Of a DNA stretch of 64,000 nt, positions 9,232 through 62,294 are shown one piece after another. The stretch is taken from the IMG/VR virus record IMGVR_UViG_3300010883_000001, positions 81,182 through 145,181 of that record; one strand, written 5' to 3'. The translations under genes were made by a program, and so were the position numbers. Numbering within the stretch: the stretch's first letter is position 1; the number at the start of each line of letters is the position of its first letter. The stretch is from a virus. Below the pieces are notes generated by a model that was not told where the DNA came from, did not search any database, and saw only the letters and a list, made by a program, of their open reading frames with translations.

Positions 9232-9811
9232 GTTTATAATTTTTACTGGACCAATGTTCGGTTCAAAAACTACTAGAATGCTAGCATGTGTAGACAGGTA
9301 TAGATACCAGCATAAACTTATTGCAGTATTTAAACCAAAGATAGATGATAGATACGAGACTGATAAAATTAAAACACATTCAGGTTTGTCTATACAGGCG
9401 CACTGCGTCGAGTCAGGTTACGAGATTGCTGATATTATAACTAAAATTGAGCTAGCGTCACTTAAGAGAGTTGACGTGATTGCCGTTGATGAAGCTTTTA
9501 TGATTGAAGGATGCTCGTCGACGCTAATTCAATTGTTTAAAACAGGATACACAATCGTAATTGCGTCGATACAATTATCGGCCACCGGCGAGCCATTTAA
9601 TGAAATTAAAGATATTCTGCCATGGGGGACAAGAGTTGAGGTTTGTCCAGCAGTATGTTCTAGGACTGGCGAAGATGCATATTATACATTTAGAAAAGTT
9701 GAATGTTTGGATAGCATTATGATTGGAGGTTCTGATATGTATGAGGCCAGGTGTTGGTCAAGTCATCCTGGACTGAATTCCTTGGAGAAATTAAATGATA
9801 GAGCCATCTAG
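9218..9811 (+). CDS. tdk: Thymidine kinase
   Basis: TGPMFGSKT, KPKIDDRY, IAVDEAF, IGGSDMYEARC. Confidence 0.9.
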   Translation: MRDPEFIIFTGPMFGSKTTRMLACVDRYRYQHKLIAVFKPKIDDRYETDKIKTHSGLSIQAHCVESGYEIADIITKIELASLKRVDVIAVDEAFMIEGCSSTLIQLFKTGYTIVIASIQLSATGEPFNEIKDILPWGTRVEVCPAVCSRTGEDAYYTFRKVECLDSIMIGGSDMYEARCWSSHPGLNSLEKLNDRAI

Positions 9812-10649
9812 CGTTGATTGCGTAATATATCATGCTGACTGTACTGACGGCTTTGGGGCAGCCTACGCAGCATGGAAACTTTTAGGAAACAAGGCAGATT
9901 ATTATGCGTGTAAGCATGGCTCAGTCCCACCAGATGTATCGGGTAAAAGAGTTGTAATTCTAGATTTTTCTTTTAATAATGAGATTACAAAAGCAATGAT
10001 TGACACAGCGGATGGTTTGATAGTCATTGATCATCATAAGTCGGCCATGGTAGAATTGCATGATATTACGGATGCTATATTCAATATGAGTAAATCTGGA
10101 GCCATGCTAGCATGGGAATTTTTTCATCCGGGAAAAGAGCCACCAAAGTTTATTTCGTACATAGAGGATCGTGATCTGTGGAAGTGGGAGTTACCATATT
10201 CAAAAGAGTTCGCTGCAGCTTTTGATATGGTTCCTTTCGAGTTTGAAGAGTTTGAGAAGTTTGAAGATGACTCTGTTTTTGATGATGCTGTAAAACGAGG
10301 AAGTTACATACTGGCGTATTCAAAAACGGTAGTTAAAAAAGTCTCTGAGAAGGCATCACCAAGAAGATTAAACGGAAAGAGCATATTGGTCGTAAATGCT
10401 TCACATTGGATGTCGGAAATAGGCGCCAGGCTTTCTCCCGATTGTGATGTTGCAATGATCTGGTATTATGATCATATTGATAAAATGATAAAGGTTAGCT
10501 TAAGATCTTTTCATGACACCGTTGATGTCTCCGAGGTCGCAAAGAAATTTGGCGGAGGTGGGCATAAAAAGGCTGCTGGTTTTATACTTCCTGGAGATGC
10601 TGTCGTGGATGATATTTTTGACGATGAGGTTAAGAATGAAGAAGTTTAG
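9795..10649 (+). CDS. DHH/DHHA1 family phosphoesterase
   Basis: YHADCTDG, LDFS, IDHH, EDRDLW, SLRS, FGGGGHKKAAGF. Confidence 0.9.
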   Translation: MIEPSSVDCVIYHADCTDGFGAAYAAWKLLGNKADYYACKHGSVPPDVSGKRVVILDFSFNNEITKAMIDTADGLIVIDHHKSAMVELHDITDAIFNMSKSGAMLAWEFFHPGKEPPKFISYIEDRDLWKWELPYSKEFAAAFDMVPFEFEEFEKFEDDSVFDDAVKRGSYILAYSKTVVKKVSEKASPRRLNGKSILVVNASHWMSEIGARLSPDCDVAMIWYYDHIDKMIKVSLRSFHDTVDVSEVAKKFGGGGHKKAAGFILPGDAVVDDIFDDEVKNEEV

Positions 10650-24060: not shown

Positions 24061-25927
<1,867 letters not shown>

Positions 25928-53384: not shown

Positions 53385-54863
53385 ATGGAAATTTTAGAAC
53401 ACCAATCAAGAGATATATTGCTTAAGTGGGCAATAGATTATGAAGAAGCCAGAATTTCTAGTACCGGTGCATTAGTTGTTCAGACCGGTATACATACCGG
53501 CAGATCTGCCGGCGCAAAAAGAATTGTTTTTGATGAGATAACAAAAGATAAAGTCAATTGGAATGATAATAAAAAAATTATGCCAAATGACTTTCATGAG
53601 ATAAAATCTTCAATGTTAACCCGCCTAGATGTCGGTGAGGGTACGGTTTTTAAACAAGAGCTTTTTGCTAATAATGATACAAAGAACCAGCTTAAGTTGA
53701 ACGTTTATACTACGTTAGCATGGCACTCAATATTTTCGAAAAATATGTTTGTAGAAAAATCTGCTCTAGGGTTTCATGATAGCGACGCAGATGAGTGGGA
53801 TCTATATTATTTTCATGATCATCTTTCATCACCGAGTGTCTTAATTTCATTTACGGAAAAAGCAATATTGATATCTGGTACCATGTATGCTGGTGAAATG
53901 AAAAAATCTGTCTTTACTGTCTTAAATTTCTGTTTACCTAATAAAGGCGTTTTACCAATGCATTGCTCTGTCAATGTTAGCAAGGCTGGAGATTCTAGTG
54001 CAATATTTTTTGGTCTTTCCGGAACGGGAAAGACGACCCTAAGTTCTGACGTTAGGCGTGATCTTGTAGGCGATGATGAACATTCATGGTCGGATACTGG
54101 ATTATATAATTTTGAAGGGGGTTGTTACGCAAAAGTTATTAACCTGTCTAAGAGTGATGAACCGCAAATTTGGGATGCCGTAAATTCAGATTTTTCTATA
54201 CTTGAAAATGTTGTTTTTGGTAATGACGATACTCCTAATTTTGATGATGACTCCATTACGCAGAACACGCGTGGATCTTATCCAATATCATCTATAAGTA
54301 ATTTCGTCGAATCGTGTTCTGCCGGCCACCCTACGAACGTTATTATGTTGACATGTGATGCATTTGGTGTACTCCCTCCCGTTTCGAAGCTTTCATATGA
54401 TGATGCAATCTCTCATTTTCTTCTAGGGTATACGGCCAAGGTTGCTGGTACTGAAGTAGGAATAGTTGAGCCAGAAGTTACATTTTCTTATTGTTATGGT
54501 GCTCCCTTTATGCCATTATCTCCAGGTGTATATGGTGATCTATTACGAGATAAATTAGTGGAACATAATCCCAATTGCTGGTTGGTTAATACCGGATGGA
54601 CAGGCGGGCCTTACGGTGTGGGATCTAGGATGCCAATATCACTTACAAGAAGTATAATTGATGCTATTCATGATGGGACGTTGGCTAATTGTTCAACTAC
54701 CCTACATGACTATACGGGTTTACGGATCCCCGTGGGTCACGATTTAATAGAGCAAAATCTATTATTTCCGGAAAAGACGTGGAATGATAAAGAGATGTAT
54801 ATTGCGGAGGCAGCTGGCCTTATGACATTATTTGATCATAAGCGCCACTTTTTGAGAATCTAA
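53385..54863 (+). CDS. pckA: Phosphoenolpyruvate carboxykinase (ATP)
   Basis: TG.HTGRS, YAGEMKKSVF, LPMHCS, FFGLSGTGKTTLS, GDDEH, NFEGGCYAK, NTR..YP, LVNTGWTGG. Confidence 0.96.
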   Translation: MEILEHQSRDILLKWAIDYEEARISSTGALVVQTGIHTGRSAGAKRIVFDEITKDKVNWNDNKKIMPNDFHEIKSSMLTRLDVGEGTVFKQELFANNDTKNQLKLNVYTTLAWHSIFSKNMFVEKSALGFHDSDADEWDLYYFHDHLSSPSVLISFTEKAILISGTMYAGEMKKSVFTVLNFCLPNKGVLPMHCSVNVSKAGDSSAIFFGLSGTGKTTLSSDVRRDLVGDDEHSWSDTGLYNFEGGCYAKVINLSKSDEPQIWDAVNSDFSILENVVFGNDDTPNFDDDSITQNTRGSYPISSISNFVESCSAGHPTNVIMLTCDAFGVLPPVSKLSYDDAISHFLLGYTAKVAGTEVGIVEPEVTFSYCYGAPFMPLSPGVYGDLLRDKLVEHNPNCWLVNTGWTGGPYGVGSRMPISLTRSIIDAIHDGTLANCSTTLHDYTGLRIPVGHDLIEQNLLFPEKTWNDKEMYIAEAAGLMTLFDHKRHFLRI

Positions 54864-57205: not shown

Positions 57206-57643
57206 ATGAGCAAGGTTATTGTTGAAGGAAGCGTTGTGAGTGTTCATTATCGAGGTACGCTCAATGATGGATCACAGTTTGATAGTTCGTATGACAGGGA
57301 TGAGCCAATTGGTTTTACGGTAGGTTCCGGTCATATGATTTCTGGATTTGAAGATAATGTTTTAGGTATGAGCGCAGGAGAAAAAAAGACTATAGTGCTT
57401 AAGCCAGAATCGGCATATGGTGATAGAGATGAAACCAGGATTCAGGAGATTAATAAGTCAAATTTTCCTCCGGATTTTAAGTTTATTGAGGGTGCATTTG
57501 TGCATGGTGAGACCATGAATGGCGAAGAGATTTTGGGTAAGATCACCGGTGAAAAGGAAGATGATATTGTTGTTATTGATTTCAATCATCCATTAGCCGG
57601 CCTTGAGTTGAATTTTGAAATTGAGGTTGTTGGAGTGCAATAA
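57206..57643 (+). CDS. FKBP-type peptidyl-prolyl isomerase (SlyD/FkpB-like)
   Basis: VHYRGTLNDGSQFDSS, GFE, AYG, DFNHPLAG..LNFEIEV. Confidence 0.93.
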   Translation: MSKVIVEGSVVSVHYRGTLNDGSQFDSSYDRDEPIGFTVGSGHMISGFEDNVLGMSAGEKKTIVLKPESAYGDRDETRIQEINKSNFPPDFKFIEGAFVHGETMNGEEILGKITGEKEDDIVVIDFNHPLAGLELNFEIEVVGVQ

Positions 57644-58106: not shown

Positions 58107-58162
58107 TCGTCACAAAACCCTGAGTATCTACTAGTTAAAATTAGGTAATAGAGGGGTTTGTT

Positions 58163-58417
58163 ATGATAAGGTTTATTTTTGCTACTATATTTGTCTTTTT
58201 TTTGACGTCGCCTGTTGTGATTGCACAGGATAACCCCACCGGGACTAAGACTAAATTTTATAATTTTGATGATTTATTAATAAATGGCCAATATAAGAAA
58301 CCTCAGGTTCTTTATACTGACGCCCGTCAAAAGGTGAAGTTTGAGAGACTTCTGAAGTTAAAGAAAGACTTTTTGCCAAAACTAAAGGCCACACATAAGG
58401 ATCACTCTTTAAGATAG
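58163..58417 (+). CDS. Secreted protein resembling myxobacterial gliding protein CglF/GltF
   Basis: Signal peptide, then YNFDDLLINGQYKKPQVLY..AR....FERLLKLKKDFLPKL. Confidence 0.6.
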   Translation: MIRFIFATIFVFFLTSPVVIAQDNPTGTKTKFYNFDDLLINGQYKKPQVLYTDARQKVKFERLLKLKKDFLPKLKATHKDHSLR

Positions 58418-58419
58418 TT

Positions 58420-59376
58420 TTATTGGACCTTTACGGTAACAATATCATCAGGATCTAGATCCATCCCGAATATAATATCACATGCGGCTTCACCACCTGA
58501 GACGTCCAGTTGATAATCTGCATCAGACGCCGCCAGCTCTCCGCTAGATCCAGTGATCATTAATACACCATTCAAGAAAACATCAACTCTTTTTGATCTA
58601 GCAACACCGGAGATGATGCTGACGTTGAAGCTAAGCCCAGTACCGGTACCGGCTGCTAGCCCACCCCCTCCAATAGTGCCAGAAACTTTTTGATAAGATC
58701 TACCAGACAATACCGCACCTAATATTGACGTAAATCCTTGACCGACCATGTCGCTCCACTCTGTCGCATTATTACTGAGTCTAATTCCCTTTGTCTTATC
58801 AGTCCACGTAGAGCTCTGTATATTTCCGTCTATAAAATACAGACCATGTGTTGATGCAGAGATAACCAAGTTATTTGTTTCGTATGCTAGTGTATTTGAG
58901 TATAGTGCACCTGATACAACTAAATCGCCACCAAAGACAGAGGTACCCACTGTTGTAGTTTTTGCCGATCCAGTAGATCCTGAAACCCAAAAGTTATTAT
59001 CACTTCCTGCGCCACTGTTCGCCCCAAAGTAAACACTATCATTACTAGTATCGACAAATAACGCATGTGTGTTATTGTCACTTTCTACTCGTAGGTCTCC
59101 CCCAAAATATCCTGCTCCTGAGACATGAAGTGTTTGGTTTGATAAGAGGACAAACTTATTTTCTGAGCCCATGGGCTTAAAGACTGCGGGTGCTTCCCAC
59201 CAGTTCGATGATACATCATCAAAATTATTCAGTCTTCTAATCGAAGAGCCCATTTCATCAAGTACATGTTGCAGATCTCTTAGGCCTGGTATGGTCGCGA
59301 AAGATGAGCCTGAGCTAACCGGCAATGTTCCTGTGATAAAATGTGTTCTTGCTTGCGTTCTAGAAGGGCGAGACAT
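58420..59376 (-). CDS. Virion structural/fibre-like protein
   Basis: G/S/T-rich beta-type repeats (VSGS, FGGDL) and a VDVFLNGVL C-terminal module. Confidence 0.55.
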   Translation of the reverse strand: MSRPSRTQARTHFITGTLPVSSGSSFATIPGLRDLQHVLDEMGSSIRRLNNFDDVSSNWWEAPAVFKPMGSENKFVLLSNQTLHVSGAGYFGGDLRVESDNNTHALFVDTSNDSVYFGANSGAGSDNNFWVSGSTGSAKTTTVGTSVFGGDLVVSGALYSNTLAYETNNLVISASTHGLYFIDGNIQSSTWTDKTKGIRLSNNATEWSDMVGQGFTSILGAVLSGRSYQKVSGTIGGGGLAAGTGTGLSFNVSIISGVARSKRVDVFLNGVLMITGSSGELAASDADYQLDVSGGEAACDIIFGMDLDPDDIVTVKVQ

Positions 59377-60127: not shown

Positions 60128-60556
60128 ATGACAACCACAATTACAAGACAACATTTTCATCCTGGCCTGTTGGGTATGGGTGTTTTTGATAGTTTATTTT
60201 CTGATATCCCAACACATCTTCAAAGATCAACTTCTGGATATCCTGTTGTTGATATTTATACGGGCAATGAAGGAGATACTATCTTAGAGTTTGCTCTAGC
60301 AGGATTTTCTAAAGAAGATCTATCTGTAGATATTCAGTCTGATAAGCGAAGCATTACAGTTACTGCATGTATGGATAATAAATCAGATGACTTGAATGTA
60401 CGTCGCATCGCAAGACGTAGTTTTAAGAAGACGTATGTAAATTATGACAATAATCTAGATTTAACAAAATCAGTTGCAAAATTTGATAATGGTTTGTTAA
60501 GTGTAATTATTCCTGTGCGACCTGAAACAAAGTCTAGACCCATTAAGATTCAGTAA
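60128..60556 (+). CDS. Small heat-shock protein (Hsp20/IbpA family)
   Basis: GYPVVDI, EFALAGFSKEDL, RRIARRSF, AKFDNGLLSV. Confidence 0.9.
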   Translation: MTTTITRQHFHPGLLGMGVFDSLFSDIPTHLQRSTSGYPVVDIYTGNEGDTILEFALAGFSKEDLSVDIQSDKRSITVTACMDNKSDDLNVRRIARRSFKKTYVNYDNNLDLTKSVAKFDNGLLSVIIPVRPETKSRPIKIQ

Positions 60557-61286: not shown

Positions 61287-62294
61287 ATGGGAAGTTTAGT
61301 TGCTGATGTTGTTGTAGGACTTCAGTTTGGTGATGAAGGAAAAGGGAAGGTGAGTCATCATCTTGCTAAGACCGGTGAATATACACATGTGTTAAGATTC
61401 AATGGAGGATGCAATGCCGGTCATACGATCTATCATGAGGGAAAAAAGTTTGTGACGCATCATATTCCATGTGGGGTATTTTTTGGAATAAAATCTATAA
61501 TAGGCCATGGGTGTGTTCTGAACATAAAACAGTTTATGTCCGAGATTGACGAATTAGAGAGAAACGGGATTAACGTAAAGCCGCTGATAGGTATTGCTTC
61601 ACATACTAACGTAATAACAGACTTCCACGTCGCACAAGATTCTAGGGATACAAAGATAGGAACGACCAAGAGAGGAAACGGGCCGGCATATAGAGACAAG
61701 TACGCAAGAAAAGGATTGTTAGCAATTGAAGTACCGGAACTGGCTGAATACATAGTTGATCTATACACTGAGTTTCATGATAATCCTGAATTTGAGGATG
61801 TTAAGGTTCTGTGTGAAGGTGCACAAGGGTTCGGTTTGGATATAGATTGGGGTGACTACCCATATGTTACTTCAAGTCATTGTACAGCTGGTAGCGTGAC
61901 TCTAAACGGTATTACTTGTGGTTCCATTAGGAATGTGTGGGGAGTTGCAAAGGTTTATTCAACATATGTTGGCGCAAAGCAGTTTGAAGGTCAAGATCCA
62001 GATTTTGAGAAGTTGAGAAAAATCGGTGATGAGTTTGGATCTACAACTGGCCGGCCTAGACAAATTGATTGGCTAGACATGGATATGATAAAAATGGCAG
62101 TAAAGATTAATGGCGTGAATAAGCTCGTTTTTAATAAAGTGGATATCCTTGAAGAACTGGGCATATGGAGACTATATTCTGGGCCGTCTGTTGAAGAGTT
62201 TAATGATGCCAAGACCATGCACGAATTCATACTATCAGAATTATCAGATAGAGATATTGAGACTATGTTCTCGTGTAGTCCTTATGAGATTTAG
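61287..62294 (+). CDS. purA: Adenylosuccinate synthetase (short form)
   Basis: GLQFGDEGKGK, GGCNAGHT, IGTT..GNGPAY.DK, EGAQG, YPYVTSS, GSTTGRPR, NKVD. Confidence 0.93.
   Translation: MGSLVADVVVGLQFGDEGKGKVSHHLAKTGEYTHVLRFNGGCNAGHTIYHEGKKFVTHHIPCGVFFGIKSIIGHGCVLNIKQFMSEIDELERNGINVKPLIGIASHTNVITDFHVAQDSRDTKIGTTKRGNGPAYRDKYARKGLLAIEVPELAEYIVDLYTEFHDNPEFEDVKVLCEGAQGFGLDIDWGDYPYVTSSHCTAGSVTLNGITCGSIRNVWGVAKVYSTYVGAKQFEGQDPDFEKLRKIGDEFGSTTGRPRQIDWLDMDMIKMAVKINGVNKLVFNKVDILEELGIWRLYSGPSVEEFNDAKTMHEFILSELSDRDIETMFSCSPYEI

Follow-up and report, generated by a model that had tools for sequence, protein, structure and literature searches.

Why would a virus carry the gene for one small part of a machine related to the one with which myxobacteria glide? 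This question is raised by a short gene (gltF') in an IMG/VR record of 145,181 bp, the last 64 kb of which form the window, meaning the whole stretch of DNA that was analysed. A reading of the letters alone (hereafter the sequence-only reading) had described the product as a secreted 84-residue homologue of CglF/GltF, a small family of the Agl-Glt gliding machinery of Myxococcota and Bdellovibrionota, and had named the lack of a significant profile match as the result that would refute this view. The open reading frame that it described is borne out: a single frame with a Shine-Dalgarno sequence encodes a protein whose amino terminus has the layout of a signal peptide (Table 1).

Table 1. Location of gltF', its parts and other genes of interest in the window; all positions are those of the window.
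Feature	Position	Strand	Basis or remark
GroEL	24252-25904	+	phrog_5725
Two adjacent MopE-type-repeat proteins, 767 and 768 aa	44771-49397	+	PF11617, E 2.6e-16 and 1e-27
ATP-dependent phosphoenolpyruvate carboxykinase, full-length	53385-54863	+	PF01293, E 3e-171; NF006820, 607 bits
FKBP/SlyD-like protein	57206-57643	+	by eye from sequence; sole profile match phrog_26774
Shine-Dalgarno GAGGGG	58151-58156	+	6 nt upstream of ATG; seen directly in sequence
gltF-like ORF (protein P0001)	58163-58417	+	84 aa plus stop; ORF list and translation
Putative Sec-type signal peptide, residues 1-21, without lipobox	58163-58225	+	sequence layout; AF2 helix 2-14; conserved A-Q-[DE] end
Conserved mature core, 56 aa, residues 29-84	58247-58414	+	indel-free in 49 of 49 cellular and viral copies compared
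N-terminal extended motif KTKFYNFDDLLINGQYKKP, residues 29-47	58247-58303	+	conservation; profile alignment; complex-model contacts
C-terminal amphipathic helix, residues 54-79 (…KFERLLKLKKDFLPKLKAT…)	58322-58399	+	AF2 helix; predicted in GltC' crevice
318-aa ORF	58420-59376	-	convergent with gltF', 2 nt from its stop; among the few minus-strand genes of the window
Hsp20	60128-60556	+	phrog_432
Adenylosuccinate-synthetase family protein	61287-62294	+	phrog_1211 (PurZ-type PHROG), E 2.2e-66

The predicted signal peptide is laid out as MIR, a hydrophobic run of 17 residues and a VIA/QD end. The hydrophobic run is variable, yet the A-Q-[DE] end is kept in 45 of 45 aligned relatives. Because the protein has no cysteine, it is not a lipoprotein, and it meets the family criterion of a small secreted envelope protein with a putative cleavable Sec signal peptide and no membrane anchor. 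The residue pattern that had been picked out by eye is exact over residues 36-74 (DD--I-G---KP---Y---R----F--L--L---F-P-L), whereas its first element was off by one, being F-D-D rather than F-x-D-D. A search of 5.8 billion proteins yields 863 that match the phage protein at E<=0.01, with identities of 65-92% for most of the 120 matches listed out of these 863, and the pattern is far beyond chance.

The profile search that could have refuted family membership yields a significant match instead. Specifically, residues 24-75 align with positions 31-82 of the 88 positions of the NCBIfam model NF033764 (gliding_CglF) at E 1.8e-9 and 37.5 bits. A six-frame search gives 36.5 bits to this model, which matches none of 14 control genomes. 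Similarly, when a profile of the phage and marine family is compared by hhalign with a near-canonical CglF profile, built from proteins of sampled Myxococcota genomes that score 77-101 bits, the two align over 75 columns with 96.65% probability and E 4.7e-10. The motif common to both is K-T-x-[YF]-[DN]-F-[ED]-D-x-x-[IV]-x-G-x-[FY]-x-[KR]-P…D-A-R…L-[IL]-[KR]-[IL]-[KR]-x-[ND]-F-[VL]-P…L-K. On the basis of these profile comparisons, the phage protein is established as a CglF/GltF homologue in the wide sense. Matches to Pfam DUF5748, Pfam AFOR_N and Csm2 were dismissed, all of them lying above E 0.03, and neither PHROGs nor Pfam has a family for the phage GltF-like protein.

The equivalog cut-off of NF033764 is 90 bits for the whole protein, and the phage protein remains well below this value. 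Thus, the proposed identity holds at the level of the family, whereas the protein is no equivalog of M. xanthus CglF and is instead the orthologue of a GltF from a paralogous cluster. The M. xanthus protein GltF/CglF (MXAN_4868) has 89 aa, a signal peptide and no transmembrane segment (PMC3169522). It resembles the phage protein in its length (family members have ~85-90 aa), its Sec signal peptide, the absence of a membrane anchor and the common motif. In contrast, the two are only 24% identical in the profile alignment and 28-31% identical in pairwise alignments, and the phage protein is encoded by a virus, alone, and has its relatives in the paralogous cluster.

The close relatives of the phage protein in reference genomes come from MAGs labelled Myxococcales, Bradymonadia, Nannocystaceae, Polyangia and Myxococcota, lineages that are named from MAG titles only. 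As for M. xanthus gltF, the cellular gene lies directly after gltE, here between gltE' and gltJ', in a cluster with the order VWA, OMP_myx_plus barrel, GltC, GltD-like, GltE, GltF' and GltJ. This cluster is present in part or whole at 26 cellular loci, with the same arrangement wherever the flank suffices. Its proteins match the profiles of GltC (E 2.6e-58), GltE (E 1.3e-20) and GltJ (NF033761, E 1.5e-54), the GltD-type gene encodes a TPR protein of 1,100 aa, and the GltJ-like protein has a zinc ribbon, GYF and an AgmX/PglI tail. All of these Glt proteins score under the equivalog cut-offs.

The core of the phage protein aligns without indels to the commonest core of marine Myxococcota with 93% identity, differing at 4 of 56 positions (D41N, A78H, A81H, T82S), and its identity ranges from 57 to 93% across cellular copies. 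It therefore has what defines the GltF' subfamily, namely an indel-free core of 56 aa, KTKFYNFDDLLI[DN]G…KDFLPKLK…LR, with an identity of at least about 60%. Among 151 sampled Myxococcota genomes, 25 match GltF' at E<=1e-15, and nine hold a copy that is at least 63% identical.

Some of these bacteria have two Glt-like loci. A nearer-canonical cluster (L066; G003:C56:136000-155900), found in the same MAG as locus L004, has the order GltC, GltD-like, GltE, CglF, GltG, a TPR protein and a giant TPR protein of >2,200 aa. Its scores (GltC 403.5, GltE 144.7, CglF 87.9 and GltG 424.5 bits) fall just under the NCBIfam equivalog cut-offs and are about twice those of the phage-like cluster on the same models. 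With NF033764, the other locus scores 88.5 bits against 38 bits for the phage-like locus in this genome (G003), and 83.5 against 38 bits in G005; two loci per genome are also present in G066 and G101. Between the two clusters, protein identity is only 25-31% (25-28% for GltC, GltD and GltE within one genome), and the genomes nearest the canonical CglF model are without a close copy of GltF'. The weaker NF033764 score, together with a separate and better CglF cluster in the same genomes, indicates that the phage gene copies the F subunit of a second, paralogous Glt-like machine. From comparative sequence data, its cellular orthologue is thus the GltF of a second Glt-like cluster, one that goes back to an ancient duplication and whose function is uncharacterised.

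Like this marine cluster, Nfs (= G3) and G4/G5 of M. xanthus are duplicated envelope-spanning machines of GltA-H-like parts. Each of the M. xanthus paralogous systems has its own small F subunit and is not interchangeable with the gliding set, and the duplicated clusters (nfs, G4/G5) do not serve gliding (PMC3169522). Because these paralogous clusters are not for motility, the function of the marine cluster cannot be assumed. Unlike nfs, which is without GltI, J and K (PMC3169522), the marine cluster begins with a VWA gene and ends in a GltJ-like gene, and these two genes would argue, by gene content only, against an Nfs-type system. The possibility that the phage protein corresponds to NfsF, the sporulation paralogue, was rejected on the same GltJ-like end and VWA head.

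Two further cellular observations concern the gene itself. A Bradymonadia MAG (L012) carries tandem gltF'-like genes at 9724-9945 and 10001-10255, the second of which is 54% identical in its core to that of the window and has a long branch. In a Microvenator MAG (L032, 1319-1402), the motif KTKFYNFDDILIDG occurs inside an open frame of 532 codons.

In the phage record, the rest of the cluster is absent. The viral gltF' does not lie beside gltE, the position that marks its cellular counterparts, and no other glt homologue occurs in the 145-kb record. A comparison of every ORF from 16 cellular glt loci with every ORF of the phage record yielded no matches beyond gltF, an epimerase and a further, unrelated ORF. 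The gene is nevertheless not confined to this record, since it is found on at least 19 other IMG/VR contigs (16-190 kb, 36-44% GC). Several of these clearly represent related phages that share GroEL, the PurA/Z-like gene, a split sigma factor and other genes with the window at 35-68% identity, as judged only where 10-kb flanks overlap homologous regions. Among these contigs the GltF' core is 66-89% identical and is more conserved than the phage's own core genes. Other glt genes are always absent, and the genome position of gltF' differs between phage subgroups.

Three contigs of 37-42% GC, L024 (NHHP01000006.1), L030 (NZBZ01000014.1) and L031 (PBLX01000048.1), have gltF' without the glt cluster and were binned to Pelagibacter, unclassified and Legionellales MAGs. 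Two of the three carry the PurA/Z-like gene at 61-67% identity. Given this phage gene in two of them and the lack of a glt cluster in any, they are most likely misbinned phages.

In a maximum-likelihood tree, 17 viral rows and four rows from low-GC MAGs form one group with support of 96/89. One of the four, L023, is cellular and belongs to a genome (G001) of 41-42% GC with a complete cluster. Loci L023 and L068 of this Myxococcota MAG (contig CAKZRU010000060.1) comprise a complete second cluster; its GltF' carries, in LLING, the Asn typical of the phage copies and is placed within the phage clade. Two more cellular rows, L022 and the long-branched L029, are also placed inside this clade. The tree is based on 56 columns, and the donor lineage is unresolvable from it. 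Most simply, the gene would have been taken from a marine myxobacterium once, long ago, and then passed down in a phage lineage.

The base composition of phage gltF' (GC 0.32, GC3 0.34) is like that of the phage, whereas cellular copies have GC3 values of 0.46-1.0, and third codon positions at identical residues agree between phage and cellular copies in only ~30% of cases. Nei-Gojobori counts give pS near 0.9-1.1, which is saturated, pN of 0.11-0.16 and pN/pS of 0.10-0.18, with phages about the same as cells. The combination of saturated synonymous sites and low pN/pS means that the capture is old and that the gene has been kept under selection. As far as substitution counts can establish it, phage gltF' was captured long ago, has been retained across a related phage clade and is under strong purifying selection.

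These results leave almost no room for the idea that gltF' is a neutral passenger, brought in as a recent scrap of host DNA, or an artefact of misassembly. In favour of such an origin, the gene is single, short, located at a strand switch and next to tRNA genes. This idea is already contradicted by the data: the composition of the gene is unlike that of donors with 50-71% GC, the protein is conserved while synonymous sites are saturated, and about 20 viral records hold the gene at several genomic positions, never with other glt genes.

The replicon is a tailed phage, specifically a large marine myovirus. The record encodes a large terminase, a major head protein (phrog_138), a tail sheath and a ribonucleotide reductase, as well as a DnaE-type polymerase, GroEL, Hsp20, an adenylosuccinate-synthetase/PurZ-like enzyme, phosphoenolpyruvate carboxykinase (PEPCK) and five tRNAs. 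CheckV rates it as 52% complete, and the full genome may thus be near 280 kb. The phage has 39% GC, and one strand holds nearly all of its genes. gltF' ends a plus-strand run that consists of the FKBP-like gene, tRNA-Arg, tRNA-Thr, an ORF of 81 aa and then gltF' itself, and the 318-aa ORF on the minus strand has zero matches in Pfam, NCBIfam and PHROGs. gltF' is surrounded by genes for tRNAs, chaperones and metabolic enzymes, and the head and tail genes (loci L078-L079) lie more than 90 kb away. With a cellular homologue, phage-adjusted composition, purifying selection and a position outside the virion module, gltF' meets the criteria of a host-derived phage accessory gene of the moron/AMG type. 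By megablast, the 14 kb around gltF' match GenBank phages in tRNA genes only.

Several other genes of the window deserve mention. PEPCK is an unusual metabolic gene for a phage. The adenylosuccinate-synthetase-family protein, which may be PurA or PurZ, is 61-69% identical to its counterparts in related contigs and ~40% identical to PurA-like genes of huge uncultured phages. In the related contigs L043 and L044, Hsp20 is immediately upstream of gltF', and a homologue of the MopE-repeat proteins lies 1-5 kb from gltF' in L043-L045. These repeats are of a Cys/Asp metal-binding kind, and the first MopE-repeat protein also shows a weak VWA match. NCBIfam gives no CglB/CglD-type match to either of the MopE/VWA proteins, nor to the VWA gene that heads the cellular cluster.

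Which bacterium might this phage infect? The sequence-only reading had taken the gene as a pointer to Myxococcota or Bdellovibrionota. The former survives, in that all labelled cellular matches are from Myxococcota, whereas none from Bdellovibrionota were obtained with this query. The literature reports GltF only from Myxococcales and Bdellovibrionales (PMC3169522). Strong selection on the residues that fit GltC' implies a host that has the corresponding cluster, and so a member of the Myxococcota. We therefore advance marine Myxococcota as a hypothesis; the host is not shown and no direct link to it exists. A comparison of 20 kb of the DNA with five Myxococcota genomes gave no spacer-like exact matches, but only tRNA and MopE-repeat similarity. 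MopE-type repeats match 28-184 places in each of the five Myxococcota genomes searched, and the two phage proteins with such repeats would support a host from this phylum. At the DNA level, G001, the genome of low GC content, has more repeat matches than any of the others.

Base composition is less easily reconciled with this hypothesis, since the phage has 39% GC and most carriers of the cluster have 50-71%, the only exception being G001 at 41-42%. The phage could therefore infect a low-GC host outside the myxobacteria, such as a flavobacterium, in which a gene of Myxococcota origin has been repurposed and its product binds some other TPR or TonB-like protein. Its nearest isolates by head protein would be in keeping with such a host, being Flavobacterium phage immuto (47% identity over 63% of the protein) and Microcystis phage Mel-JY01 (35%), as would the related contigs binned with Pelagibacter and Legionellales MAGs. 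We consider this improbable. The odd MAG contigs with phage genes and without a glt cluster are most likely binning errors, and a Myxococcota genome with a GC content near that of the phage does carry the cluster, with its GltF' in the phage clade. Moreover, the core has remained 93% identical despite saturated synonymous sites, so that the residues fitting GltC' are held by selection, and both the MopE-repeat proteins and the reported range of GltF speak against a host of another kind. The G001 lineage is a candidate host or donor.

The fit to GltC' can be judged from structure prediction. In the model of the M. xanthus machine, GltF is a largely disordered bridge whose C-terminal helix lies in a crevice of GltC and whose strand pairs with the TonB-like domain of GltG, with contacts to GltD en route (PMC11761067). 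M. xanthus GltF fractionates with the envelope, sits at focal adhesion clusters and is required for GltD clusters (PMC3169522). For the phage monomer, AF2 predicts helix 54-79 (pLDDT 71-82) as the sole confident element besides the signal peptide, and confidence is low outside the helix (pLDDT 67).

When phage residues 22-84 were modelled together with GltC' of locus L034, a stand-in host protein whose own GltF' has a core 93% identical to that of the phage, the complex scored 0.89, whereas the best of three controls scored 0.00. Of 80 solved complexes, 58 attained that mark, as did 2 of 110 mismatched pairs, counts that are only roughly valid here because our own alignments were used. Three runs share at least 87% of the contacts, and GltC' has a pLDDT of at least 72. 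The contacts with the lowest error are between phage residues 69-78 and GltC' residues 292-351 and 378-385, stretches that include columns invariant in 18 GltC' sequences (among them Y292, L343, R347, Y350, E378 and W381). Phage residues 30-47 also touch GltC' in the model. Neither protein has a solved relative, and thus the model was not drawn from a known solved structure; its pose agrees with the published model of the M. xanthus GltF helix in the GltC crevice (PMC11761067). These predictions support placement of the phage C-terminal helix in the crevice of a host-type GltC', although binding is supported rather than shown.

By its position in the profile alignment, the motif KTKFYNFDDLLINGQYKKP corresponds to the region of M. 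xanthus GltF that is modelled as a strand paired with the GltG TonB-like domain. Judged by column entropy, residues 29-42 (mean 0.19 in phages versus 0.26 in cells) and helix 59-74 are as conserved in phages as in cells, whereas conservation is somewhat relaxed only in the middle of the protein and over its last eight residues. Given the conservation of both strand motif and helix, the phage protein keeps every recognisable interface of the host subunit.

What, then, could a phage gain from this subunit? The sequence-only reading had proposed altered gliding or predatory contact, or a blocked receptor that excludes superinfection, effects that rest on inference alone. We lean toward the view, with appreciable doubt remaining, that gltF' is a host-derived accessory gene of a marine myovirus whose product takes the GltF' slot and sustains the host machine. 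In an infected myxobacterial cell, the phage protein would be exported by Sec and its signal peptide removed, leaving a mature peptide of ~63 aa that would occupy the GltF' slot. GltC', which partners the outer-membrane barrels on the periplasmic side, would receive the C-terminal helix in its TPR crevice, and the N-terminal extended motif would remain available to GltD' and to the TonB-like domain of GltJ'/GltG', in line with the model of M. xanthus GltF. In this manner, the phage would resupply a small, mostly unstructured and possibly short-lived linker after host gene expression fails, and the envelope-spanning machine would be kept working.

Cyanophages with psbA would follow the same logic: D1, the product of this gene, is a single host-derived subunit through which a host machine is presumed to stay active in infected cells. 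Both psbA and gltF' encode one such subunit, are under purifying selection, have a phage-adjusted base composition and are presumed to serve the upkeep of a machine. The parallel is incomplete, in that the machine of GltF' is a periplasmic force-transmitting complex rather than a metabolic or photosynthetic one, and in that there are no data on GltF turnover. The presence of GroEL, Hsp20, the FKBP-like gene and PEPCK fits a phage that props up host physiology, and lends weak support to a sustaining role. This role is our preferred reading of the sequence data, and the direction of the effect is its least certain step; conservation fits both directions.

The same conserved interfaces could, in principle, be turned against the machine. 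A phage adaptor produced in excess would saturate the GltC' side and the GltJ'/GltD' sides separately (a hook effect), uncoupling the two. With the outer-membrane platform no longer connected to the motor, movement on surfaces or the display of adhesins would cease, and a receptor in the outer membrane might be hidden from superinfecting phages. An excess bridge acts in this way only if both interfaces are intact, as is observed; GltC' binding is backed by the complex model, and the adaptor is the only part of the machine in the phage record. Precedent exists in general terms, since phages are known to block type IV pili for superinfection exclusion, as do Tip of D3112 and Aqs1 of DMS3. These proteins are novel inhibitors of type IV pilus ATPases that act in the cytoplasm. 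Like phage GltF', they are small phage accessory proteins directed at a motility organelle, whereas GltF' reproduces a structural subunit almost exactly and would have its place in the periplasm. We judge such jamming unlikely, while keeping it in view, because there is no evidence on expression level and none that any Glt' part is a receptor. Furthermore, only a few conservative changes separate the phage form from those of hosts, and one of these, N41, is also present in the cellular copy L023.

A more far-reaching proposal is that the adaptor, in a copy close to perfect, has been preserved over a long time in a whole clade of uncultured marine giant phages and serves them as a switch on the second Glt-like machine, for example by flooding the periplasm and cutting the outer-membrane adhesin platform from its motor. 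We put this forward as a doubtful but possible scenario. If true, surface movement would be halted and the phage's own receptor hidden. Moreover, gltF' would then represent the first virus-encoded part of a bacterial focal-adhesion-type motor, as well as a sequence marker that ties a phage clade to myxobacterial hosts.

Whether the machine is sustained, as we prefer, or arrested, the viral gene has no described counterpart. A tblastn search with the phage protein matches none of 50,697 GenBank phage records, and in the literature we found no report of a virus that carries a part of an Agl-Glt type machine. A 2026 preprint on myxobacterial viruses lists no glt gene. The protein family is known; the viral copy is new, and no virus is known with a part of the myxobacterial Agl-Glt type.

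This viral copy offers a concrete host hypothesis, marine Myxococcota, for large uncultured phages that have been binned to Pelagibacter and Legionellales. Among the subunits of the machine, it marks GltF' alone as worth copying. The 56-residue core has hardly changed between genomes whose GC contents span 36-71%, which makes this linker, little studied so far, stand out as a control point of the machine. In addition, attention is drawn to a second, widespread Glt-like cluster without a tested function. Some phage copies of the gene contain an extra, degenerate half-copy of the N-terminal motif before the core, for example KKKFYEFNPIYIK or KTKLYNFKALYIK, as seen in L038 (10001-10219), L041 (9567-9740) and L024 (8020-8178).
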